A DNA stretch of 63,864 bases, filler included, from Folioceros fuciformis (GCA_049999805.1; 6 parts of 6 records of this genome joined end to end with filler, not necessarily neighbours in it), one strand, 5' to 3'; positions 1 to 63,864 are shown, counted from the first letter of the whole stretch. Program-made: numbers and translations. Notes: generated by a model from the letters alone, not told the origin.

Positions 1-11
1 TTTTTGACAGC

Positions 12-956
12 ATGAACACAAAGAATGTGGTGACATGGACCGCCCTGATATCTGCGTACGGTACTTGTGATGAAGGTCATAAAGCACTAGCTTGTTTTGA
101 GGAGATGTTGGTTACCGGTATTCAGCCTAATGATGCCACTTTTACCTGCCTTTTAGTAGCATGCAGTCATGGGGGACTGGTCCATGAAGGTCGCAAGCAC
201 TTCAATTCCATGCCTGAACAGCATGGTATCAAACCTACTCTTGAGCATTACAATTGCATGATTGATCTGCTTGGGCGTACAGGCCATTTAGATGAGGCAG
301 AGCAGATGCTAGAAGAGAAGATGCGACTGTCATCCGAGTCTCAAAGCAATATTGTGGGATTGAAGTCTTTGTTGAATGCCTGCAGAAGTCACGGAGATCT
401 AGATAGGGCTAGGTGGTGTTTTGAAAGCATTGTTAGGCTGGACCCCCAGGAGGGGCCTGCCTATGTTCTCATGGCCAATGCTTATGCAGATGCAGGTAGG
501 TGGACGGATGTAGACAGAATTGAAACACAGAGAAGGGTAGCAGGTGCTAATAAGAAACCTGCAGTGGCAACCATTGAGGTGAACAAGGAAGTACATAGGT
601 TTGTAGTGGGAGAAAGAAATGAGGATATTGCCCTTCAGGTTGAGAGAACGAATGCACGTCTGAAACAGGAAGGAGGCCACGTGCCTCACACAAAGTTGGT
701 GTTGAAGCCACTGTGTGAGAAGGAAAAGGAAGACATGCTTTGTGGGCATGCTGAGAAGTTAGCTCTGGCGTTTGGTCTCTTGAACACTCCGAGTGGGACG
801 CCACTTATGGTAACGAAGAATCTACGCATGTGCAGTGACTGCCACACTTCCACAGAGATAATGTCAAAGCTTGAACAGAGAGACATTGTTGTGAGGGATG
901 GTTATCGTGTGCATCGATTCGCAGCTGGTTGTTGCAGTTGTAATGGTCGACCGTGA
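12..956 (+). CDS. PLS-class PPR protein, C-terminal part: E1/E2 plus DYW:KP domain ending GRP (candidate U-to-C RNA editing factor); 5' end lies outside the window
   Basis: P2-L2-S2 motifs, E motifs, KKPAVATIEV in place of the PG box, zinc-binding HAEKLA...KNLRMCSDCH, and C-terminus CSCNGRP*. Confidence 0.93.
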   Translation: MNTKNVVTWTALISAYGTCDEGHKALACFEEMLVTGIQPNDATFTCLLVACSHGGLVHEGRKHFNSMPEQHGIKPTLEHYNCMIDLLGRTGHLDEAEQMLEEKMRLSSESQSNIVGLKSLLNACRSHGDLDRARWCFESIVRLDPQEGPAYVLMANAYADAGRWTDVDRIETQRRVAGANKKPAVATIEVNKEVHRFVVGERNEDIALQVERTNARLKQEGGHVPHTKLVLKPLCEKEKEDMLCGHAEKLALAFGLLNTPSGTPLMVTKNLRMCSDCHTSTEIMSKLEQRDIVVRDGYRVHRFAAGCCSCNGRP

Positions 957-18185: not shown

Positions 18186-21164
18186 TTATCCTTCTAGGTT
18201 TTTCTTCTGAGTGCATAGCCTGTTCCGCGCTGTCGCTATCCTTTCATCATGTATGTTCCCAGAATGGAGCACCTGCCTGTCTTTCTCGATTTTCAAAACA
18301 AGCTGCTTGAGCGTAGCATATATACTTTCCCCCTCCGGATGTTGTTGATCCCCAACGAAAAAACTATGCACCAGCCCGTCCATGTCAGTCCACCAGCTCT
18401 GGCCTGCCTGCTTCCAGGCTCCGATTCGTGTTCTCTTAGCCTGCATCTCCTGTGCCTCCAACAACATCTGGGAACTGGTGTATATGTTTGACATCAACAC
18501 GTACGCTGCCGGGTCCATTTCGTCCAGCTTCACTGCTTCTTCGAAAGCATGGCGACCGACCTCCAAGTTGCCCCACTTTCGACAAGCAGCTAATAGAGTG
18601 TGCCAGACGGCGACATCAGGTTGGAAAGGCATGGTCCGTACCAAAGCTAGTGCCTCGTCCAGTCGGCCAGCACGACCCAGGAGATCAACCATGCACGTGT
18701 AGTGCTCCATGGTGGGAGTGATGGCAAACTTTCTGCTCATAGCCTCAAAATGCTCTCGCCCCTTCTCCACCAGGCCCACATGACTGCATACTCTCAGTAA
18801 ACAAAGGAATGTCACGCTGTCCGGCTGGACGCCATCCCTTCTCATTCTGTGAAACAAGTTGAAAACCACTTCACTGTCTCCTTGACGGGAGTATCCTGCA
18901 ATCAGTGCATTCCAGGCGCCGATGTCTTTTTCCAGCATTGCCTCAAACACTTGCTGGGCATGAACCATGCTCCCAGACCTTGCATACATATTTATCAAAG
19001 CGAGTGCAACAAGTGCATCACCTTGGACCCCTTGTTGTTCAATCTGCGCATGAAGCTCCCTGCCTACATGCAAAGCTGCCACATTTGCGCATGCCTGCAG
19101 GACGCAAACAAATGTCACAGAGGAAGGCACAACGGTGCCTCCTTCCTGCAGGGCCCTGTACAGACGAAGTGCTTCCTGCCCCATTCCCTGCTGAGAGTAT
19201 CCTGTTATCATGGCATTCCAGGATACCACAGTTTTTTGGCCAAGTCCATCAAAAACGCCCTGAGCATCCTCCATGCTGCCACACTTTGCATACATGTTCA
19301 CCAAACTGTTGGCCACATAAACATCAGCCTGAAGTCCTTGCTCTTCAATGTGCAAATGAAGCTGCTTCCCCTGCTGCAAAGCTGGGACACCCATAGTTGC
19401 GCACGCCTGCAGGAGGCACACGAATGTCACGGCATCAGGTGCGGCGTTGTTCTCTTCGTGCATACGAGTGTAAAGATGAAGAGCTTCCTGACCCATACCC
19501 TGCTGGGAATATCCTGCGATCATGGCGTTCCAAGTGACTACGTCTTTCCGAGAAAGCTTATGAAACACTCTCTCCCCTTCTTCCAAGCTGCCACACTTTG
19601 CATACATGCTCACCAAACCATTTGATATAATCACATCACCTTCAAGTCCTAGGTCTCTGATCTGTGCATGAAGCTGCCTCCCCTTCTCCAAAGCTAGATA
19701 GCCCTTGGTTACACAAGCCTGGAGGAGGCACACAAATGACACAGCATTAGGAGCGGCAATGCCTTCTTCTTGCATAGTATTGTAAAGACAAAGGGCTTCT
19801 CCACCCATGCCATGATGGGAATATCCTGCTATCATGGCATTCCACGTCACCACATCTCTTTGAGGAACCTCGTCGAATAGCCTTTGAGCTTCTTCCAGGC
19901 TGCCACACTTTGCATACATGTTGATCAAACTATTTGCTACATAAATGTCAGCTTGGAGTCCGCGTTCTCCAATGTGTGCATGAAGCTCCTTCCCCTTTTC
20001 CAGAGCTGGAGTGCCCACAGCTGCACAAGCCTGCAGGAGACACACAAATGTGACAGCAGTAGGTGCAGTGATGCCTTCTTGTTCCATGGCCTCATATAAG
20101 CGAAAGGCTTCCTGCCCCATTCCCTGCTGAGAATATCCAGCTATCATAGCATTCCATGTGACGACATCCTTGTGAGGAAGCCCGTCAAACACTCCCTGAG
20201 CATCTTTGAGGCTGCCACACTTTGCATACATATTCACCAAACTGTTGGCGACAGCCACATCCGCCTGAAGGCCTCTTCCTCCAATCTCTCCATGAAGCTG
20301 CTTCCCCTTCTCCAAAGCAGAGGCACCCACACCTGCACATGCCTGCAGGAGGCTAACAAAGGTGACAGAAGTGGGTACAGCAATTCCTTCTTGTTGCATA
20401 GCACTGTAAAGCCGAAGGGCCTCTTGACCCATGCCATGCTGGGAATATCCTGATATAAGAGCTGTCCACGTCACAACATTTTTCCCCCCCAGGCCGTCAA
20501 ACACTCTTTGAGCATCCTCTAGGCTGCCACACTTTGCGTACATGTCCACTAATCCAGTAGAAACAAACAGACCAGGCTCGACCCCAGTGGCCAACACATC
20601 AGCATGCACCAGCTGCCCAGCTTCCAGGACTGCTCCCCGGGCACAAGCCTGCAGGGCTGCTACAAACACATGAGCATCTGGCTTCACACTCGACCTGCGC
20701 ATCTGATGATACAGTTGTATGGCCTCCCTATCTTGTCTGTGCTTGACATGCGCCGAAATGATGGCAGACCACGTGAAGGAATCTGGGTTAGCAACCGTTC
20801 TGAATACATCCATGGCTTCTTGCAACATGGCATGAGAATCGTACATCCGCAGGATGTGGTTGCACAAAAATGTGTCCGCCTCAGAACCATTCCTCACAAT
20901 AAGAGCATGGACACGGCGACCCAGGACCGCATCCTTCCCACATTTCGAAAGGACTGTACACAGCAAAGAGTGAGAAACAAGACATTCTGTCTGCACCAAA
21001 ACACCCAGAGCCTCCGCAACCTCTACGAGCTGCCCCTGCTCACATAACATGCTCACAGTTTCAGCTGTGACGCGCCTTTCGTATCCTGCAGCCCTGCAAG
21101 AGTGAGGAGTGGGAACAAGACCATCCCGCAAGCTCCCGTTAGATGGCCAAACACAAGTCTCCAT
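18186..21164 (-). CDS. Intronless PLS-class PPR protein with E domains and a truncated WW-type DYW start (no in-frame catalytic HxE/CxxC)
   Basis: 992-aa ORF of P-L-S triplets, E1/E2, KQAGQSWW...VHSFFVGDQQHP, then stop. Confidence 0.92.
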   Translation of the reverse strand: METCVWPSNGSLRDGLVPTPHSCRAAGYERRVTAETVSMLCEQGQLVEVAEALGVLVQTECLVSHSLLCTVLSKCGKDAVLGRRVHALIVRNGSEADTFLCNHILRMYDSHAMLQEAMDVFRTVANPDSFTWSAIISAHVKHRQDREAIQLYHQMRRSSVKPDAHVFVAALQACARGAVLEAGQLVHADVLATGVEPGLFVSTGLVDMYAKCGSLEDAQRVFDGLGGKNVVTWTALISGYSQHGMGQEALRLYSAMQQEGIAVPTSVTFVSLLQACAGVGASALEKGKQLHGEIGGRGLQADVAVANSLVNMYAKCGSLKDAQGVFDGLPHKDVVTWNAMIAGYSQQGMGQEAFRLYEAMEQEGITAPTAVTFVCLLQACAAVGTPALEKGKELHAHIGERGLQADIYVANSLINMYAKCGSLEEAQRLFDEVPQRDVVTWNAMIAGYSHHGMGGEALCLYNTMQEEGIAAPNAVSFVCLLQACVTKGYLALEKGRQLHAQIRDLGLEGDVIISNGLVSMYAKCGSLEEGERVFHKLSRKDVVTWNAMIAGYSQQGMGQEALHLYTRMHEENNAAPDAVTFVCLLQACATMGVPALQQGKQLHLHIEEQGLQADVYVANSLVNMYAKCGSMEDAQGVFDGLGQKTVVSWNAMITGYSQQGMGQEALRLYRALQEGGTVVPSSVTFVCVLQACANVAALHVGRELHAQIEQQGVQGDALVALALINMYARSGSMVHAQQVFEAMLEKDIGAWNALIAGYSRQGDSEVVFNLFHRMRRDGVQPDSVTFLCLLRVCSHVGLVEKGREHFEAMSRKFAITPTMEHYTCMVDLLGRAGRLDEALALVRTMPFQPDVAVWHTLLAACRKWGNLEVGRHAFEEAVKLDEMDPAAYVLMSNIYTSSQMLLEAQEMQAKRTRIGAWKQAGQSWWTDMDGLVHSFFVGDQQHPEGESIYATLKQLVLKIEKDRQVLHSGNIHDERIATARNRLCTQKKNLEG

Positions 21165-35439: not shown

Positions 35440-38400
35440 TGTTGAAATATATCTAGGTTATGGCACTATTCATTAGGGCACCTTATTTAAACATTATCTA
35501 GGGCATAAAGTAGTTACTTAATTAGTTGCTCTAGGTAGTTAGTCATTATATTAGTTAGTTGTTATATTAGTTGCAACTACCTAGTGGTTACAACAACTTA
35601 TGGTTGTAACCACCTAACCACCTAACCACCTAGCCTATATATAGGCTTGTACTCTTTACTTTCATAATTCAATTGCATTGTATCTCTTCTGCCTAAGAGC
35701 TATTGATTCTCATCATCGTATCAGAGCATGTAGCTCTCTATGCTTCCTGCTATTCAATGCTACTCTAGATCTCTTCTACTGTTAACAATACATTGCAAGG
35801 ACTTCATTCTAGGCAGCAATCGAGCATAGCATCAAGTGCTCAAATGATGCAAACTTTGTGCATCCAACTTTTCTTCACTCTCCATGGATTCTTGTAATCC
35901 TAGTGAACATGGAAGAAAGGAGGAAATTCAAGACTCAGAGAAGGAGGCGGCACCAAAAGGACTTCATAGAAGTTTCATCAAAGGAGTTTAATCTTCACTC
36001 CCCTACTAAACATGATTTGCTTGAAGTCCATGTTTGTAACTTAATATTTGCCCTCCTCTCCAAGTCCAAACATAGAGCAAAGTCCATCATATTTGCTAGA
36101 AGGACCTTGCTCTCCACATTTAGCCTTTACCAATTAGGTGCTATTGAGTCCGCAATTTCTCAATTGATCAAATCAAAGTCTAGAACTTTTTCCCTAATCC
36201 AGATAAATTACAGCAATCACTTAACACCATCAGATTAGAAGCTATCCAAATACATACTTCGATTGATGAGAGATTGAATTACCTCAACCAAGAGATATAT
36301 TTAATCTCCAAAGCTGTTGAGCAACTAACTGTAGGAGAGGTTGATATTGCTAACTCTTATGTTTGGAGCAATACAGATACTTGCAATAAAACAATGAAGA
36401 AGTGCAGCACGTGCTTACGCGTTACTCCCAAATTCGTCGTGAGGACTTCGCGTCAAGCACAACCCAGCTATCTTCATTAATTTTGAATGTCACCTGCAAC
36501 GTTTGAGGAGCAAGTTATTGACGAGGTTACCCACTCTAACGAGGACGCCGAAAAACTTAAAAAATGGCTTGCTGAAGAAAGAGCCAAATGGGAAGAAGAG
36601 TGGAAAAGAAAGACTTTTGTCTTTCCACATTCAACTGTGGTTTATGGAGAAGGCTTTAACGAGAAAGATAGATTCAATGGAAAAGGATATGACGTTTGGC
36701 AACTACGTGCCAAAGGAGTACTACGACAACGTGACTTATGGGATATCGTTAGCGGTGATATTGATCGTCCCCTCTAGAATCAAGATTCTAAAGCAAACTG
36801 GGACATCAAGGATCAGAAGGCTCAAGATATCATCATAAGTGGACTTACTGAATCAATGGTTCGGCAAGTCTCTGAAGCAGAAACCTCCAAGGAGATGTGG
36901 GATTGTCTAGCCCAAATATATGCATCAAGCGATGTCATGAGCATCTTGACGGCCTCCTGCAATTTCCAAAATCTCAAAATGAGAGAAAGCGATTCCATTG
37001 AAAGCCACATCAGTGCATTTAGATTGGCCAAAAATAATTTTGAAGCAACATCTGGTGAAAAGATCTCCGAGAAACAAGCCTTCATCAATCTTCTATCCAC
37101 TCTACCATCTTCCTATAGGCCATTCATGACAACACAAAATGTGGTCCTTCGCACTACACCAAAGGATGCCGCAACAATAGGCTCATGAACGCTGAACATC
37201 AGCTTAAATGAGCTCATAGAAGCCATCATATAGGAGGAATCTAGCCATCGTCACGACACTCGCTCCACCAAACAGCAGGTGATGTTCAAAGTAAGTGGCA
37301 GAGGTAGAGGCCGAGGCAAAGGGTCTTTCACCTCTTGCCCATATACAAATCCCCCTCGTGGAGATATTACATCTTCTTCTACGCCTGCAAGAGGTAAAAA
37401 GAAGATTATTTGCAATTGGTGCAGAATACCAAATCATATGGAGAAGGACTACAACAAGAAGAAGAATGGCGAGCCTAGAAAGGAGGCCGCACCTGGAGCA
37501 CATGTTGCTGTGAAGAAACAATCCTCCACAACACCCTCACCTCTCACTATATGCTTGGCATCATCAAAGTCAACAAACCCAAATTGGTACTTGGACAGTG
37601 GAGCTACGTCACACATCTATCACAGAAGAAACTCTTTTGAGTCCTATTCGCCAGTATCCGGATACCAGGCTGTCCTACTGGGTGATGACCACAACCTCCC
37701 CATCTCTGGTATAGGTTTAGTCGCTCTCAGATGTTCTTCAGGCCAAGTTCTTTCTCTCTCTAATGTCCTTCACGTACCATCCATGTGTAAAAACTTAGTG
37801 TCAGCTGCCAGTTTATGTTCACAACATAATTTGTACGTCATTTTAGATGCAGATAGTTGTATCATCTCTTATTTCCCGAGTGAATCACTAATCATCTGCA
37901 CAGGCACTTTAGAGGACGGGTTATATAAACTGTCTGTCCGAGTGGGAACTACACATGATAGGATACATGTAGCTTCTCAAAATTCTGTCACTTCAAATAC
38001 AACAGTACTCTGGCATTGTAGATGAGGTCATCCTAATAGCCAAAAACTTGTACAAATGTCGGAGGGAAATTTTTATAGAAACCCTTCTCTTACAAAGATA
38101 GAACCCCTATCATGGTGTGAAGCTTGTGTCATCACCAAAAGACATCATGCACCTTTTCAAAACCACTCTCCCTAGTGGGCTAAGGTCCCCCTTGAGTTAG
38201 TTCACACCGACATTTGTGGCCCAGTCTCTGCACCCTCCTTAGCAGTTGCAGATATTTCCTTACCTTGATTGATGATTTCTCCCGCTTTACCACAACATAC
38301 ACCCTTAAAAACAAGAGTGAAGCTTTCCAGCATTTTAAGGATTACATGATGTGGGCGGAGAGACTTATAGAGAAGAAACTTAAGACACTCCGTTCAGACA

Positions 38401-40159
38401 ATGGCAGCAAGTTTACTTCCAATGCCTTTACTGATTTTTGTTGAGCACAAGGTATAGCTCAACAACTCACGGTGGTCTATACACCCCAAAAAAATGGTGT
38501 AGCCAAAAATAAGAATCTACTCCTTCAAGAAGTCACGGGTTGCTTGCTCACCCAAGCAAGGTTATCTAAACCATATTGGGCAAAAGCAATGATAACAACA
38601 ACCTACATCATTAATCGACTTCCAACCTCTGCGATTAAAGGTATGACACCTTATGAAGCATTCACTGGTAGAAAACCTTCCATTCGAGTATTTGGCTGTA
38701 CAGCATATGTTTATATTCATAAATCAAACCCGTAAAAAGTTAGATGACAAGGCTGCCAAGTATACCTTTATTGGTTATACCGAAGGTATCAAAGGATACA
38801 AATTATTTGATCCAGGTACCAGGCGACTCATATACGCCCGCAGCATTACTTTTCATGAGTCCCCTATATTATCTCCTTCAGTGGATTCCCATGTTTTCGC
38901 TCCTGACGATCATCATCTCCCTCTGTCTTTTGATAATGACAAATTTATTACCCTACATTCCACCCCTTCCCCTCCACCGGTTGCACCTATATTGCAGGAG
39001 GAGGAGGAGCCATCTTCTCCAAGACGACCAACTACTCCAGATCCACATGTGGAAATTCCTGAACACCTTGAAGATCTTCCTGATATCCCGGACAATGAAC
39101 TTTCCGAGCCTGAGTATCTGGATGAAGATGAGCCGGTTCCTCCTATACATGAACTAGCTCTTGAAGAAGACGATAACACTTCAGAACAAGTCGTCAACAA
39201 AGATGTACAACATGCACCAAGGTACAACCTAAGATCCAGACCTACTGCCTCTGGACTTGCAGGATGGAAGGAACCACCTCTGGGATACCTTACTACTTTT
39301 GATGATCCTTCCTCACCTTTCTCCCATTTTTATCAAGTTGTTTATAAAGCCACTGTTGACCCTGAAGAGCCACTAACCTTGAAACAAGCTTTTTCCTCTC
39401 CTGAGAAAGACTTATTGAAAGCCGTAGTGGACTTTGAGTATGACTCCCTAGTTAAGAACTCTACATGGGAATTAGTCAAACCACCCGAAGGGAGAAAAAT
39501 AGTTGGGAGTAAATGGCTATTCAAAATTAAACGCAAGGGTGATGGTTCCATTAAGAGATATAAGGCAAGACTAGTAGCCAAAGGTTTTACCCAAATACTG
39601 GGTTTAGATTACATACCTTAAGGTACTTATGCTCCATTAGCAAAATTTTCTTCCTTAAGAATGATAATTGTCTTGAGCGCTCAACATGATTTACACCTTC
39701 ACATGATGGATGTCAAAACAGCTTATTTACATGGATGCATTCAAGAAGAAATATACATGAAACGACCTGAGGGTTCTGAGGTCAAAGGTAAAGAAGATAT
39801 GGTATGTAGGCTAATCAGAGGTCTCTATGGCCTAAAACAATCTGGAAAGGAATGGAACAAAGATATACATGACAAGCGTATCATGTATGGTTTTATTCAA
39901 AGCAAAGCTGATGTAAGTATGTATATCTTAAAGTCAAAACAACATACACTTTACCTCTTACTTTATGTGGATGACTTATTCTTAGCATCATCTTCACTCT
40001 CCTACCTAGCTGAAGTTAAAGCTTGGTTAAGAAGTCACTATGAAATGACAGACTTGGGAGAGCTAACCTATGCCCTTGGCATCAATGTTATAAGGGATTA
40101 GAGGTAATAAATCTATCAGCCTGGTTTAGACAAAATATATAAAAGAAAGTTTAGCCAAG
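35440..40159 (+). mobile_element. Ty1/copia element: 5' LTR 35440-35715, PBS 35716-35727, gag-PR-INT-RT with stops; RT interrupted at 40160
   Basis: TG...CA LTR with TATA; tcgtatcagagc; CNWC zinc knuckle; WYLDSGATSH; LRSDNG; YGLKQSG; YVDD. Confidence 0.92.
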
Positions 40160-45913: not shown

Positions 45914-48900
45914 AACAGTTAAGTAGGTTACTCAAGTTACTAATTGATCAATCGTCGTTATAACTAAATACACTTTGTATTTAAATCGTATCATTAATGC
46001 TCAATCATCAATTCCAAGGGATTCTTGTCCCGCTACATGGTATCAGAGCCCCAGGCTCGTCCCCTCATGGCTTCGCCGCTGCTTCCCGTCACTGGCGCTG
46101 CACACTTCACAAGGATGGGTCAGCAGCAATTGAAGAATCCAGCAGACCAGAGATCCTAATCAGGAAAACATGGCAAGGCGACGCACCTCCGTGACTTTCA
46201 CTTCAATACACCGCGCTCCCACTCCTGAAGGGAGATCTTTCATCAACATAGTAGAGAAGCAAATCCACGACGAGCGACTCCGCCGCCGGTGGACTACGCC
46301 AACTACCAGCACACCTATCAGCACTCCAGCCACGGCCGCCCCGATCAAGCCCATCTCTCACTCACACGAATGCACGTACACCGCTTCCTCCCTAGCCAAC
46401 GTACCTGCCACACCTAAGTACTTGAGAATTCAATTGGACTGCATAGAGTCACAACTCGGCCCTGCATATCGCAATCAATCAGATTCCCTTCTACATACAA
46501 ATGTAAATCACGCACTCCTCACTTTTTTTGCTAGTCCTAATTCGAGGCCCCGCAGCCTTTTATGCCCAAATTTGATCCGCTCTCCCTTCATACCACAAAG
46601 CCCCCTACAAAGAAACTTGCAATTAAATCAGCCATGGCCTCTTATGTCCCTAATCCCACTTCTACGGTGATTAACACCACCAAAGTTGAATTTAGAGACT
46701 GTGATCACTTCAACGGAAGTGATTACGATATCTGGCAAATGAGAATCACAGCCATGTTAGAAGAACATGATCTAATGTCAATCACATACGGCACTTTGCC
46801 ACGACCCTCGCTCACCTCTACCACACCAGCTACCCTTGACCAGATAGCTGCATGGGACAAGAAAGACAAGAGGGCTCGCAACATCCTGATATCTGCGATT
46901 GACAAAACAATGCTACAACACACCCAAGGTCAGACGACCTCACATGATGTATGGAAAAGCTTTTAATGACATGTTCCAGGCACAGAGTTCAATGTCTCTA
47001 ATCAATGCCACAAGACAATTCTACTCACTGAGGATGAAGGACAGTGAGAGCGTCGAGCAACACGTAAACATGTTGCGGTCCCTGCGAGCGAAGCTCTCCA
47101 ACAGCGACACCGTCATCACCAAACTTCAGGCAGTAGGCGCAAACGCACCACCAGCCTACACCTTTTCAGACGTTATTTCAGCATTGCTCGAGAAAGAATC
47201 CAGCAGAATCGGCACCTCACGCAATAATGTTGGGGTAAGCCACGCCCTCTTCACTTCCAGAGGTCGAGGAAATAGGCGTGGTAAAGGACGAGGAGGTTTC
47301 CCCAAGCGAAGAGGCCCACCTTCTCCAAGCTTCTCGGGCTTCCCAAGTCGACAATTTTCACAAAACAGATCATTTGACAGAAGATCAGCCAAACGAGCAT
47401 GTAACTGGTGCAAAAATCTTGGTCACTACCAAAGTGAATGCCGAAAGAAGCAAGCAGGCGAGCCACGCAGAGAAGCTCCCAGAAACGAGTCTCACCTTAC
47501 CACAACTACCAAGTCGTCGTCAGCTAGTTCCATCTTAGCAATCTGCCTCACCCTTACCAAAACAGACACATGTCGTTGGTTCTTAGACTCTGGAGCCACC
47601 ACACACATATGTAGCTATCAAGACATGTTTACCTCCTACCACCCGGTCCTCTCCGACCAACACATCCTCTTTGGAGATGATAGTGCACTACCCATTCAAG
47701 GTTCAGGAGAAGTCCAACTGCGTCTTTCTACTGGAGAGCTCCTCACCATCAACAAAGTCCTCCACGTACTTGCAATGACCAAGAACTTGCTGGCAATCCG
47801 TAAGTTAGCCACAAAACATGACCTCACCATCACGTTCCAAGGAAACCACTGCACCATCTGTCACAACAAAGACCCTGAGAAAATAGCCCTAGCTCACGGA
47901 CTTCCCTTCAATGATCTTTACCTCTTAAACATCCAATCTACATCACTCTTGGTAGATAGCAGTCCACCAACATCCTCAAACAAGTCCTTGTTACGGCACT
48001 GCCGTGCAAGCCATATGAACTCTAGATACCTCAACATGCTTGCAAACCCCACCATGTATAAGGATCTTGTCAAGCTCAAAGTTCACAAGGACTTCTTCTG
48101 CAAGATATGTCAGTATACCAAGTTAAACCAATCACCTTTCAAAGACCCTTCTCCTACCCGTGCCAGACGACTGCTTAAGACAATCCACTCCGATATATGT
48201 GGACCCATGAGCACCGACTCCTTTGGAGGCCACAGCTATTTCATTACGTTCCTGGACGAATGGAGCAGATACTGCCATGTCTACTCCTTGAAGCGAAAGG
48301 ACGAGGCCCTTTCATGTTTCCAAGACTTTCTTCTCACTGCTGAGTGGCAAACAGGATTTCAAGTAACCACCCTGCGAACAGACAACAGGGATGAATACAT
48401 CAGCAATGCCTTCCAAAGATTCTGCCGCTCTAAGGGCATTCAACGACAGAACACGGTACCTTACACTCCCTCACAGAACCCTTTCGCTGAACGACTGAAT
48501 CGTTCCTTGTTGGAAGTCTTGAGGTCCCTCCTCAAACTTGTAGGCTTAACAAAAGCATACTAGGCAGAAGTTGTGTTCACTTCCACTTACCTGAAAAATA
48601 GGCTTCCAACTAAGGAACTCCCCTGCACTACTCCATTCGAGAGGTGGAGCGGCCACAAACCTAGGGTATCCCACCTCCATATTTTCGGTAGTCCTACCTT
48701 TGCCCACATTGCTGCAAAAACCGGAAGGAAGTGGGATGATACAAGTCGAAAGATGTTGTTCATAGGATACTTGGACCAAGTCAAAGCCTACCGGCTCTTT
48801 GATCCCCACTCTTGAGAGGTAATCCATTCCCGCATTGTTCATTTCCACAAAACCCATCTCCTCAACACACTCCTCCAGTCCTCCCTCACTTCCACTCCCT

Positions 48901-58208: not shown

Positions 58209-59860
58209 ACAGCATGGACACGAAGGATGTGGTGACATGGACGGCCCTGATCGCTGGGTATGCACAGCAAGGACTCGGCCAAGAGGCACTTGTTGTGTAT
58301 GGACAAATGGAGGAGGCGGGCCTCGTGGTGGCTAACCATGTTACTTTTGCGTGCCTTTTGAAGGCGTGTGCAAGCACTGGTGCCTTGCAGAAGGGCAGGG
58401 AGCTTCACTCACAGATTGTCCACAGAGGTGTGCTGGATGATGTAGTGGTGGGAAACGGCCTGGTGGACATGTATGCAAAATGTGGTGAGCTGGAATATGC
58501 ACGCCAGGTTTTTGAGAGCATGGCCTCGAAGGATGTGGTGACATGGACGGCCTTTATTGCTGGGTATGCACAGCAAGGACTCGGCCAAGAGGCGCTTGTT
58601 GTGTATGGACAGATGGAGGAGGCAGGCCTCGTTTTGGCTAATGATGTTACTTTTGCTTGCCTTCTGAAGGCGTGTGCAAGCACTGGTGCCTTNNNNNNNN
58701 NNGTTGTGTATGGACAGATGGAGGAGGCAGGCCTCGTTTTGGCTAATGATGTTACTTTTGCTTGCCTTCTGAAGGCGTGTGCAAGCACTGGTGCCTTGCA
58801 GAAGGGCAGGAAGCTGCATTCACAGATTGTAGAGAGAGAACTGCTGGATGATATAGTGGTGGGAAACAGCCTGGTGGACATGTATGCAAAATGTGGTGAG
58901 GTGGAAGATGCACGCCAGGTTTTTGACAGGATGGCCACTAAAGATGTGGTGACATGGAATGCCCTGATCGCTGGGTATGGTGGTTGTGATGAAGGTCGCA
59001 AGGCGCTAGCTTGTTTTGAGGAGATGTTAGCTGCTGGTGTTCAGCCTGACGATTCTACTTTCACTTGCGTTCTAGTAGCATGCAGTCATGGGGGTCTGGT
59101 CCAGGAGGGTCGCAAGCTCTTTGATTCCATGGCTGAAGAGCATGGTGTCATACCTACTGTTGAGCATCACACCTGCATGATTGATCTTCTTGGGCGTGCT
59201 GGCCAATTAGATGAGGCAGAGAGGATGCTATCATCATGTGAGGGCGAAAGTGAGGTGGTGGGTTTGACATCTTTGTTGAATGCCTGCAAAAGTCACGGAG
59301 ATCTAGAGAGGGCTGTGTGGTGTTTTGAAAGCATTGTTAGGCTGGACCCCCAGGAGGCACCTGCCTATGTTCTCATGGCCAATGCCTATGCAGATGCAGG
59401 CAGGTGGACCGATGTAGACAGGATTGAAACACAGAGAAAGGCAGCAGGAGCTAAGAAGAAGCCAGCAGTGGCAACCATTGAGGTGAATAAGGAGGTACAC
59501 AGATTTCTGGTGGGAGAAAGGAGAAAGGATATTGCGCTTAAGTTAGAGAGCACGAATGCGCGTGTGAAGCAGGAAGGAGGCCACGTACCTCACACAAAGT
59601 TGGTGTTGAAGCCACTGAGTGAGAAGGAAAAGGAAGACGTGCTTTGTGGGCATGCTGAGAAGCTGGCTCTGGCGTTTGGTCTGTTGAACACTCCGAATGG
59701 GACACCTCTGATGGTAACCAAGAATCTACGCATGTGCAGTGATTGCCACAGCTCCACGGCGATCATGTCGAGGCTTGAGCAGAGAGACATTGTTGTGAGG
59801 GATGGGTACCGTGTGCATCGATTCGCAAATGGTTGTTGCAGTTGTAAGGGTCGACCATGA
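58209..59860 (+). CDS. PLS PPR plus E plus DYW:KP (GRP) protein, C-terminal half
   Basis: P-L-S triplets, KKKPAVATIEV, HAEKLA, CSDCH, CSCKGRP*; close paralogue of 12-956. Confidence 0.92.
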
Positions 59861-60115
59861 GAAAAATGAAGAAGTGAGTGTAGCCAGTGCCAGGCGGATT
59901 CCTAGTGGTGTGCGGATTCTTCTTGGTGGCAAGGACCATTGTTCCCCTAACTAGAAGACGAAGAAGAAGAAGAAGAAGAATTGTATGATCGTGCACTGGA
60001 GGGCATTTCGCTCTGTGGGAGTAGGTACTTCACAACTTTGTAGCAAGCCTAGCATGTTTTCCCTGCATCCCTGCACACTCTGCTTGATGAGCACGTTGTA
60101 CACGTGCTTTGCAGG

Positions 60116-60685
60116 GTCTCCTCAACTCCTTCTCCTTACCAATACTGCCGTATGTATATGATGCTGTACAGTGCGGGTGAAAGCACATTGGTAGCCAGTA
60201 TGCCGAGGAGTATCAAGGCACAAGAGCTTGGCAGTTCACAGGAAGCAGGTGAAACTAGCAACCCCAATCACAATCCAGGCAGTGCGAGGCACAGATCCAG
60301 ACTTTTACTTAACGGCAATTCCTCGTCTAGTTACATCCAGGACCGCGTTGCCGTTTCGGCCTTCAAGATACCAACTGACCCAACTGCGTGATCAGAAACA
60401 GAGACCGTGATACCATGGCTCGCTTGAAATTTCTTGGGATATGTAGCTTGGCAGTCTCCTCAACTCCTTCTCCGTATCAATACTCCCGTGTGTATATGAT
60501 GCTGTACAGTGCAGGTGAAAGGACATTGGCAGCCAGCGTGCCGAGGAGTATCAAGGCACAAGAGCTTGGCAGTTCACAGGAAGCAGGTGAAACTAGCAAC
60601 CCCAATCACAATCCAGGTGACCCAACTGCGTGATCAGAAACAGAGACCGTGATACCATGGCTCGCTTAAAATTTCTTGGGGTATG
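60116..60685. repeat. Local direct duplication with internal deletion
   Basis: ~60116-60278 matches ~60454-60617, and ~60377-60445 matches ~60619-60685. Confidence 0.8.
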
Positions 60686-60982
60686 CACTTAACGTGGACA
60701 AGCCTTAGATGAAATTCTTGTTTTTTCTTATGGCGGCTGACAAGCAATTAACTGTTTTGTACATCTAAACTGAAACATAAAGTTACTACCCAATATCCGC
60801 AGCTCCAACCGCTCCAACAGCCCACAGGCACTATAGGACGGCTCACCCCTTCAGGCAGGACGGCTCACGTTCACCCCTTCAGGCTGCTGTGCTCGTACAT
60901 ACATACGTACAGTGTACCCGGCCGGGAATCTGCCTAGACGAGACTTTTGTGAGAGTCAACTTCGGACAGCAGTCCCTGAAAG

Positions 60983-62664
60983 ATGGCCACAGTATGGCAA
61001 CCGGACCTGTTGTTGACCCAACAAATTGGAATTGGTGTGTGTACAACGACTCTACCAGGAACCCCCGCTCTCCTCAGCTTCGGGAGTGAACCCTTTGCAA
61101 ACAAAGCCTCCAGCTGCAGCATTGTCAGGAACCCAGCACTTCCACCTCCGAGCACGAGAACGTGTGTGGGCAGGGACGGGTTTTCCGACGATGCTGGTAG
61201 TTGCCAGGAGCAGGAGGAGCACTTGTGGCAACAACTTTTTCTGGACCCTACCATGTGGTGGGATAACAGACGAGACAAGAAGAGCTCCCGTTCCCCTCAC
61301 TTCCGGCGTAAGGGGTCCGGCGAGGTGCTGTGGTTGGACAACAGGTTTAAGCCAGCTTGGGTTGATGAGCAGCTCGTCTCCTTGGATATGCAGATGGGTC
61401 TCGGTTCCTCTGCTTCCAACTTGAGCTCTCCAGATTATCCTGAACCTGGAAGGCGTACAGGTGGTGAAATGGGCTCCAGGGGCAGCAGTGTAAGAAACCC
61501 AGCACTTCCACATCCAATGGGCCATGGAGTCTCTTCTTTCGAGTGCAGCTCTGTGTATAAGCGTGGATCTGGCAGGCGTGCAGAATTGGAAACGGGCGTC
61601 GTAAGTGCTGCAACCGTGAGCATGTTATGTCATCAGGGGAAGCTTTCTGAGGCAGTTAGAGCCCTGGAATCTCTGGTGCAGTCAGGCTCTGGCGTTTCTC
61701 AGTCTCTGTTTTACACAGTGTTAAAACTCTGTACAGCTAAGAAGGATTTGGTGGTGGGGCGACGAGTTCATGATCTCACAGTCAAACTTGGGTACGAGTC
61801 GAATGCATATTTGGGGAACCATATCTTGCGCATGTATGCATGTGGAGGTAGGCTAAAGGAGGCGATGGATGTGTTCAACAGGGTAGGGAAACCGGATGTC
61901 TTCATGTGGTTTTCCATAATCTCTGCACATGCTAAGCACGGGAAGCCGAAGGAGGCCATACAACTGTACCATGAAATGCGTAGGTCAGAAGTGAAGGCGG
62001 ATGGTTATGTCTTTGTAGCCGCCCTTCAAGCTTGTGCATTTGCTGCCGACCTAGAATCTGGCAGAACAGTGCACCGCGACGTGTTGCGCAGTGGCTTCCG
62101 TACTGACTTGTTTGTTAACAACTGCTTGGTGGACATGTATGCAAAATGTGGCCGAATGAAAGATGCACGCCAGGTTTTTGACAGCATGGACACGAAGGAT
62201 GTGGTGACATGGACGGCCCTGATCGCTGGGTATGCACAGCAAGGACTCGGCCAAGAGGCACTTGTTGTGTATGGACAAATGGAGGAGGCGGGCCTCGTGG
62301 TGGCTAACCATGTTACTTTTGCGTGCCTTTTGAAGGCGTGTGCAAGCACTGGTGCCTTGCAGAAGGGCAGGGAGCTTCACTCACAGATTGTCCACAGAGG
62401 TGTGCTGGATGATGTAGTGGTGGGAAACGGCCTGGTGGACATGTATGCAAAATGTGGTGAGCTGGAATATGCACGCCAGGTTTTTGAGAGCATGGCCTCG
62501 AAGGATGTGGTGACATGGACGGCCTTTATTGCTGGGTATGCACAGCAAGGACTCGGCCAAGAGGCGCTTGTTGTGTATGGACAGATGGAGGAGGCAGGCC
62601 TCGTTTTGGCTAATGATGTTACTTTTGCTTGCCTTCTGAAGGCGTGTGCAAGCACTGGTGCCTT
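60983..62664 (+). CDS. PLS PPR protein N-terminal half with an OSB-type (PDF-like) motif; continues into the sequence at 58209
   Basis: LWQQLFLDPTMWWDNRRDKKSSRSPHFRRKGSGEVLWLD...PAWVDEQL, then PPR motifs; 62181-62664 matches 58209-58692. Confidence 0.88.
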
Positions 62665-62764
62665 NNNNNNNNNNNNNNNNNNNNNNNNNNNNNNNNNNNN
62701 NNNNNNNNTTAATTAATTAANNNNNNNNNNNNNNNNNNNNNNNNNNNNNNNNNNNNNNNNNNNN

Positions 62765-63864
62765 GGCATCGTCCCGCCGTCAATGGGCCCCGGCGTTCGC
62801 CGGGGTGACGGTTTCGGAACTGACAAGTCCTCTTCTATTACCGCTCCCGTAGTAAGGACATCGCAAAGGAAGATTACCGCGCGATCCACCCCACCCGTCA
62901 CCCCGGCGAACGCCGGGGCCTATGGAAGACGGCTCGGCAAATCGTGTCACGGAGCAACGCCGCTTATGCACCGAAAGGCGCAACGTCACCCGTCGATGCG
63001 GCACCCTCCCGCCGTCCATAGGCCCCGGCGTCCGCCGGGATAACAAAACTGGGTGGCAAACGCTCTTCTATCACCGCTCCCGCAGGACGGACATCGCAAA
63101 GGAAGATTGCCGCGCGATCCACCCCACCCGTCACCCCGGCGAACGCCGGGGCCTATGGAAGACGGCTCGGCAAATCGTGTCACGGAGCAACGCCGCTTAT
63201 GCACCGAAAGGCGCAACGTCACCCGTCGAAGCGGCATCGTCCCGCCGTCAATGGGCCCCGGCGTNNNNNNNNNNNNNNNNNNNNNNNNNNNNNNNNNNNN
63301 NNNNNNNNNNNNNNNNNNNNNNNNNNNNNNNNNNNNNNNNNNNNNNNNNNNNNNNNNNNNNNNNGGCATCGTCCCGCCGTCAATGGGCCCCGGCGTTCGC
63401 CGGGGTGACGGTTTCGGAACTGACAAGTCCTCTTCTATTACCGCTCCCGTAGTAAGGACATCGCAAAGGAAGATTACCGCGCGATCCACCCCACCCGTCA
63501 CCCCGGCGAACGCCGGGGCCTATGGAAGACGGCTCGGCAAATCGTGTCACGGAGCAACGCCGCTTATGCACCGAAAGGCGCAACGTCACCCGTCGATGCG
63601 GCACCCTCCCGCCGTCCATAGGCCCCGGCGTCCGCCGGGATAACAAAACTGGGTGGCAAACGCTCTTCTATCACCGCTCCCGCAGGACGGACATCGCAAA
63701 GGAAGATTGCCGCGCGATCCACCCCACCCGTCACCCCGGCGAACGCCGGGGCCTATGGAAGACGGCTCGGCAAATCGTGTCACGGAGCAACGCCGCTTAT
63801 GCACCGAAAGGCGCAACGTCACCCGTCGAAGCGGCATCGTCCCGCCGTCAATGGGCCCCGGCGT
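62765..63864. repeat. GC-rich tandem array (468-bp unit made of two ~234-bp subunits) of paired inverted hairpins, REP/BIME-like
   Basis: ccgtcaccccggcgaacgccggggcctatgg (62895) and inverted partners (62781, 63016); unit start recurs at 62765 and 63233; block duplicated at 63365-63864. Confidence 0.85.

Follow-up and report, generated by a model that had tools for sequence, protein, structure and literature searches.

PLS-PPR editing factors are usually drawn as a transit peptide followed by a PPR array and E/DYW domains. A gene in the window, i.e. in the whole 63,864-nucleotide stretch of Folioceros fuciformis DNA analysed here (filler included), raises the question whether such a factor may carry a further part ahead of its repeats, the PDF motif of OSB proteins, and what this part might do there. 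The initial annotation had read the interval 61107..61520 as an OSB-type ssDNA-binding motif fused to a putative U-to-C editing PPR; its start is out of the gene's frame, but the interval does span the motif and both copies of a direct repeat.

What is present of the gene is its 5' part, an ORF of 560 codons on the plus strand (60983..62664) that runs from an ATG, directly preceded by an in-frame TGA at 60977, to an assembly gap. It encodes PLS-class PPR repeats (Pfam PPR_2, E 3.8e-46; PPR, E 1.1e-44), and Pfam finds PPR/TPR families only, from about residues 205-214 onwards, leaving the first 200 residues without a match. The N-terminal 78 residues (60983..61216, +), at most a putative targeting peptide, are predicted by the structure model to be disordered, and the first 40 residues contain neither Lys nor Arg. 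Profile, alignment and structure prediction then place an OSB-type PDF module at residues 79-135 (61217..61387, +), in which PHF replaces PDF; the peptide LWQQLFLDPTMWWDNRRDKKSSRSPHFRRKGSGEVLWLDNRFKPAWVDEQL, encoded at 61223-61375 in the frame of the ORF, occurs only once in the six frames of the window. A linker that is again predicted to be disordered (61388..61606, +) leads to the PLS PPR array (61607..62664, +; Pfam and model), which ends at the gap. The gap itself (62665..62764) consists of 44 N, TTAATTAATTA and another 44 N, and an unrelated GC-rich contig follows. An intron that would remove the motif was considered but need not be assumed, as the reading frame continues without a stop from the ATG across the PPRs.

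The motif is not covered by any Pfam model, the 58-residue motif stretch matching none of its families, and a word-indexed protein search with residues 70-140, a method too insensitive for this motif, returned three candidates, none of which was scored. When 60 residues (61217-61396) were compared by phmmer with 1.84 billion representative proteins, 522 matched at E<=1e-3, 114 at E<=1e-10 and 14 at E<=1e-30, many of them with several copies of the motif. When the best 150 of the 522 matches were scanned against Pfam (E<=1e-5), 37 proved to contain an SSB domain (PF00436) with the motif C-terminal of it, i.e. the OSB architecture, e.g. P0074, whose source name is 'OSB1, mitochondrial-like'; the remainder comprised seven proteins with PPRs, one with a kinesin motor, two with doubtful low-complexity matches and 103 with no family. 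The protein with the kinesin motor, P0046 (Coptis chinensis KAF9616283.1), has three PDF motifs (residues 191-394) before the motor, be it through a real fusion or through gene models that were merged. P0002 (719 residues) and P0003 (Kingdonia uniflora, 1160 residues) consist nearly entirely of tandem PDF motifs, with 9 and 13 matched stretches, respectively, and no OB domain was detected in either at E<=1e-5.

An OSB-only profile, built from 60 motif instances that all belong to the 37 SSB-positive proteins, aligns to residues 79-135 over model positions 1-56 of 58 with 70.2 bits (E 5e-24); it is not fully independent, as the 37 proteins were found using this very motif, whereas their SSB domains are independent. 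Across the 842 stop-to-stop frames of at least 40 residues in the window the ORF was its sole match (E 2.9e-21). The stretch is thus a genuine OSB-type PDF motif located N-terminally of a PLS PPR array, as initially proposed. The protein is nevertheless not an OSB protein, because Pfam detects no PF00436 and the 78 residues N-terminal of the motif are modelled as disordered.

Among 401 aligned motif instances, the near-invariant positions correspond to W82, P89, W92, D94, R96, K99, P105, D106, F107, L116, W117, P123 and W125. The copy in the ORF retains every one of them but D106, which is His here, so that the Pro-Asp-Phe signature reads Pro-His-Phe with the Pro and the Phe on either side kept. 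The change from PDF to PHF, noted from the outset, is real and exceptional: Asp occupies this position in 94% of the 401 instances, and the 378 instances aligned there have D in 363, A in 10, N in 2, S in 2 and H in 1, the single His being that of the present copy. P0163, the closest full-length relative, has D. Judged from the alignment, the exchange may weaken the module, and one could go further and regard it as a relic in a decaying copy, i.e. as a module that works in the family but is inactive in this gene owing to the exchange of D for H. The rarity of His and the Asp of P0163 are in line with this, but no other conserved position is altered, the ORF has 560 codons without a stop and the predicted fold is confident (see below), and we consider decay improbable.

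The duplicated sequence on either side of the motif had been taken as bracketing an inserted cassette. The repeat itself is real: its copies (61108-61149 and 61474-61515, both +) are 42 nt long with 36 identical positions, lie in frame at a distance of 366 nt (122 codons) and reach a local score of 54, compared with 16.4 +/- 2.1 and a maximum of 27 in 300 shuffles. The first copy encodes ..SSCSIVRNPALPPP and the second, within the disordered linker, ..SSVRNPALPHP. It does not mark the borders of an insertion, since relatives carry the motif without it; the repeat is absent from the motif-bearing P0163 and P0132 and from the PDF-PPR proteins of ferns and Selaginella. Compared with P0163, the linker with the second copy contains 48 extra residues that are unconserved and predicted to be disordered, and only 5 of its 73 residues are identical. 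Because the relatives lack the repeat and the second copy lies in this extra, unconserved, disordered linker, the repeat is best seen as a local duplication of later date in sequence free of constraint.

Is the module a domain in its own right? AlphaFold2 predicts for residues 73-146, with 37 aligned sequences, a helix, three short strands and a second helix (mean pLDDT 89.9, pTM 0.75). In a model of all 560 residues the module has pLDDT values of 76-91; those of residues 1-70 and 140-203 fall short of 50, and those of the PPR solenoid, with helix pairs from about residue 205, exceed 90. By these models, residues 79-135 are predicted to form an autonomous small α/β domain between two disordered segments, some 65-70 residues before the PPR solenoid. 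Constraint follows the same boundaries: identity to P0163 amounts to 11 of 78 residues in the N-terminus, 34 of 57 in the module, 5 of 73 in the linker and 53 of 92 in the first PPRs, i.e. the module is conserved to the same degree as the PPRs and the flanks are not. In structure searches with the predicted module, no PDB entry passed E<=1e-3 in Foldseek (best E 3.7), and none of 48,161 chains reached a Z score of 5 in VIA-align (best 4.1); a PDB sequence search with the module found nothing under E 0.1. No solved relative of the modelled domain is recognised in this way, which does not prove a new fold. A search of the ESM Atlas with residues 70-215 (best score 0.78, clusters of phage gp49) yielded what the tool's guidance treats as noise and was set aside.

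The pattern of conservation bears on a further explanation, according to which the module is part of the import signal and is cleaved off on import, leaving a mature editor without it. The module lies within the first 135 residues, and in several relatives the motif starts as early as residue 6-25, in the region typical of presequences. Presequences, however, are not conserved the way a folded domain is, and here a conserved, confidently folded domain stands between unconserved, disordered flanks; moreover, it is homologous to a motif that is C-terminal and part of the mature protein in OSBs. Loss of the module on import is thus highly unlikely. The proteins with the early start (P0134, P0058, P0162, P0098, P0161 and P0094, PDF-PPR proteins of ferns or Selaginella) have little or no room for a classical organellar presequence; their gene models may lack some 5' sequence, or else targeting differs.

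The module also recurs in public sequence contigs that resemble this locus. Contigs from four public runs of three organisms were placed on 60700-62200 at a likeness of at least 85%, amounting to 1,524 to 23,121 contigs per run; the depth over the bins of the module equals that over the bins of the PPRs, though the contigs are short and none joins the two on a single molecule. In two runs the cover starts only at about 60904-60955, shortly 5' of the ATG. One variant at 61235 is present in 56-115 contigs per run (104-115 in two runs), and an in-frame deletion of 3 nt at 61212 in 11-56 contigs per run. The even cover of module and PPRs together with the recurrent variants suggests that the module is common to a family with many paralogues.

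Whether the gene encodes a U-to-C editor depends on its C-terminus. Hornwort DYW:KP proteins split into DRH and GRP variants, with HAE in their KP domains, and the designer consensus GRP proteins KP2 and KP3 edit U-to-C in E. coli, according to the available part of PMC9478123. In the window the ORF with the module meets the gap at 62665, and a KP-type C-terminus is therefore not contiguous with the PDF module. The contig that contains the ORF spans 58209-62664, however, and its first 484 nt (58209..58692, +) are 100% identical to its last 484 nt (62181-62664), which links the 5' part of the gene to a 3' part (58703..59860, +) with PPRs, an E motif (about 59294-59482), a DYW deaminase domain (about 59579-59851) and a stop codon. 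The corresponding ORF 58214..59860 (DYW_deaminase, E 2e-34) contains KKKPAVATIEV, GHAEKLA, CSDCH and a terminal ...KGRP*, i.e. KP in place of the PG box, the HAE active site and the terminal GRP, the features of the class as given in the accessible text of PMC9478123.

P0163 has all of these parts in one ORF of 950 residues: the PDF motif lies at residues 62-119 (72.8 bits by the OSB-only profile) and is followed by the PLS array, the E motif and a DYW domain that contains KPAMA and HAE and ends in GRP. Its identity is 49% with the 5' ORF, counted from residue 77, and 66% with the 3' piece as far as GRP. As the PDF module and the DYW piece 58703-59860 are joined only via the identical contig ends, there is either one GRP-type gene that was wrapped by the assembler or two near-identical tandem copies. 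Based on the overlap and on P0163, assignment of the PDF-bearing gene to the DYW:KP GRP class is plausible; the link between PDF and KP is not exclusive. Of the putative U-to-C editor the KP class therefore stands as a reasonable reading, whereas the C-terminus itself is not contiguous with the module here.

The PLS triplets, with a period of about 306 nt and 90% identity, evidently broke the assembly, so that it is uncertain how many PPR repeats this gene has. Both identical contig ends adjoin linker gaps, and 62570-62664 is repeated once more at 58703-58797, after a gap of 10 N. The spacer between the stop codon of the DYW part and the next ATG contains a tandem duplication (60106-60279/60446-60617 and 60376-60443/60618-60685, 93-97% identical). 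PPR editor genes are clustered in the window: a second GRP-type DYW:KP C-terminus (DYW_deaminase, E 7.9e-34), ending in NGRP, is located at 3-956 (+), cut by the window's start. Long ORFs at 37282-39621 and 46944-48563 (+) resemble, by eye only, the gag, zinc-knuckle and integrase parts of LTR (copia-like) retrotransposons. The piece after the gap (62765-63864) is GC-rich (65%), differs from everything else in the window and may stem from a contig that is foreign or was misplaced; it contains a 500-nt block twice with 100% identity (62765-63264 and 63365-63864, separated by 100 N), which is built in turn from units of about 235 nt with 89% likeness.

A KP-type C-terminus might suggest that the motif belongs to KP editors in particular, a special link that the distribution of the motif does not support. 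Eleven further PDF-PPR proteins were recovered, with one to three modules ahead of the PPR array: KAH7429238.1 from Ceratopteris richardii, KAI5076972.1 and KAI5061374.1 from Adiantum capillus-veneris, P0161 from Adiantum nelumboides, the transcripts P0094 and P0159 from Pteridium aquilinum, XP_024517303.1 from Selaginella, as well as P0004, P0132, P0160 and P0162. P0004 and P0159 contain three modules in tandem. Pfam detects a DYW domain in none of the eleven, two of which are fragments, and an E motif in two. The association of PDF and PPR is therefore not KP-specific. There is a hint that mosses are possibly included, as given by the short fragments P0111 (source name PPR protein) and a cluster, P0145, with Sphagnum jensenii entries. 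Within the window, the WW-type relative 18186..21164 (-) does lack the PDF motif, as the initial annotation stated, by both six-frame and profile searches; this PLS protein of 992 residues (…GQSWWTD…) ends in an E+ motif without a DYW deaminase domain, and its first PPR is preceded by only about 34 residues.

The PPR-linked motifs appear to have a history of their own. In a FastTree phylogeny of 58 columns, calculated from 377 of 407 motif instances after 30 with more than 12 gaps had been dropped, 13 of 17 PPR-linked motifs group with one 162-residue protein in a clade of 14 (support 0.76), whose parent has 17 leaves (support 0.88); with so few columns, this PPR-linked clade is suggestive only. 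The signature KPxWVD is found in 13 of 18 PPR-linked motifs, in none of 62 OSB motifs and in 4 of 295 motifs of unknown context. Judging from these sequence features, the PPR-linked module is a distinct and probably old subgroup that is shared across non-seed land plants and not tied to the KP class, and its KPxWVD signature could reflect a changed ligand.

What would the module do on a PPR protein? To our knowledge, ssDNA is the only ligand reported for the PDF motif. According to reviews, the PDF motif of OSB1 suffices for the binding of ssDNA (PMC6451138; likewise the available portion of PMC6963530), and OSB1 and OSB2 prefer ssDNA over dsDNA or RNA, as stated in the accessible section of PMC4166229. 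By homology, this preference, known from OSB proteins as told in these reviews, would extend to the PPR-linked module. Because every conserved position but D106 is retained, we infer that the module still binds single-stranded nucleic acid, which would occur without sequence specificity and through the conserved Trp, Arg and Lys residues. Since it is carried on about 65 disordered residues, we take it to be a flexible anchor and not a continuation of the surface formed by the PPRs. Such an anchor would keep the editor at single-stranded regions of the nucleoid, e.g. transcription bubbles, R-loops, or replication or recombination intermediates, and the PPR array would thereby meet the nascent RNA at the nucleoid. 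By analogy with the OSB proteins we tentatively favour this picture of a flexible tether, the initial annotation having likewise proposed a tether to nucleoids or transcription bubbles; the KPxWVD signature, the His in place of D106, the early start of the motif in several relatives and the gap in the gene count against it.

In seed plants, helper proteins raise the RNA affinity of PLS-PPR editing factors. The main rival to the tether assigns a similar role to the module, which would bind ssRNA 5' of the PPR footprint and thus add non-specific affinity to a weak PLS array, comparable to the helpers of the seed-plant editosome. PPR editors do have RNA as substrate, in the fern proteins no more than about 12-20 residues separate the module from the first PPR-like helix pair, the three tandem modules of P0004 and P0159 would suit a gain in avidity, and a separate PPR-linked subgroup with KPxWVD is compatible with a shift of ligand. 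Moreover, other PPR proteins have an N-terminal RNA-binding domain, e.g. maize PPR4 with its RRM, as described in the available part of PMC9459714. However, OSB1 and OSB2 favour ssDNA over RNA in the section of PMC4166229 cited above, the conserved positions of the OSB motif are retained apart from D106, and the present module sits on a disordered linker of about 65 residues instead of abutting the array. Taken together, a role as RNA-avidity helper appears possible, if rather doubtful.

The tandem arrays of P0002 and P0003, which stand alone, and the location of PDF motifs ahead of a kinesin motor in P0046 are reminiscent of a portable adaptor, and the module might accordingly act in protein-protein contacts, either by bringing the editor to nucleoid proteins such as OSB or Whirly or by mediating oligomerisation. 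We regard this as very improbable, as the reviews ascribe ssDNA binding to the motif itself (PMC6451138, and the available parts of PMC6963530 and PMC4166229). Returning to the tether, one may also speculate on a far-reaching version of it, in which PDF-PPR proteins couple editing to ssDNA as such: the module would park U-to-C factors, and elsewhere E-type factors, on the non-template strand or on R-loops, editing in non-seed plants would be obligatorily co-transcriptional and, in the extreme, DYW:KP domains would act on ssDNA. We give this version little credence.

In full-text searches of the literature, no account of a PPR protein with a PDF motif came up; an earlier mention is possible in Gerke 2020 and Gutmann 2020, reportedly the primary descriptions of hornwort DYW:KP proteins, in Zaegel 2006, said to be the original OSB paper, or in supplements. 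The word OSB is absent from a 2026 survey of domain fusions of editing factors (PMC13386178), and a 2026 study of the OSB family treats PDF only within OSBs in its accessible part (PMC13393729). The portion at hand of a review on moss PPR proteins names RRM, LAGLIDADG, SMR, NYN, CBS and SAP as accessory domains, without PDF, and states that RNA editing, in mosses at least, may use a simpler complex consisting of one DYW-type PPR protein and a few unidentified non-PPR factors (PMC9459714). PDF and PLS-PPR thus apparently form a new combination of known parts.

Each known system shares only some of these parts with the present protein. OSB proteins share the motif, which is about 55 residues long, aligns from end to end and differs here in one near-invariant residue only, but there it reads PDF and lies C-terminal of an OB/SSB-like domain, whereas here it reads PHF, belongs to the PPR-linked subgroup with KPxWVD at the C-terminal helix and stands N-terminal of a PPR array without an SSB domain. 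With the hornwort DYW:KP proteins of the GRP type, candidate U-to-C editors, it shares, by the contig end and P0163, the PLS array, the E motif and the DYW domain with KP for PG, HAE and terminal GRP; the available text of PMC9478123 describes no N-terminal module for these, its designer proteins consisting of PLS and C-terminal consensus only. The PDF-PLS proteins of ferns and Selaginella, annotated as hypothetical or PPR proteins, likewise have one to three modules before a PLS array, most of them in the same motif subgroup, but no DYW domain was found in them, their linker to the first PPR is much shorter and the module is nearer to the N-terminus. Maize PPR4 and PpPPR_3 with their N-terminal RRM resemble it in placing a general single-strand binder before the PPR array, according to the accessible part of PMC9459714, but the domain is of another fold and family and the proteins are P-class splicing factors, not PLS editing factors.

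The known range of the PDF motif is thereby extended beyond the OSB proteins. The PDF module would be an overlooked fourth building block of a whole PLS subgroup, found in a hornwort-type genome, in ferns and in Selaginella, and possibly in mosses. It would provide a handle on where and when editing happens, i.e. at the nucleoid, co-transcriptionally or on free RNA, and the synthetic U-to-C editors that are now being engineered can be equipped with it or made without it.
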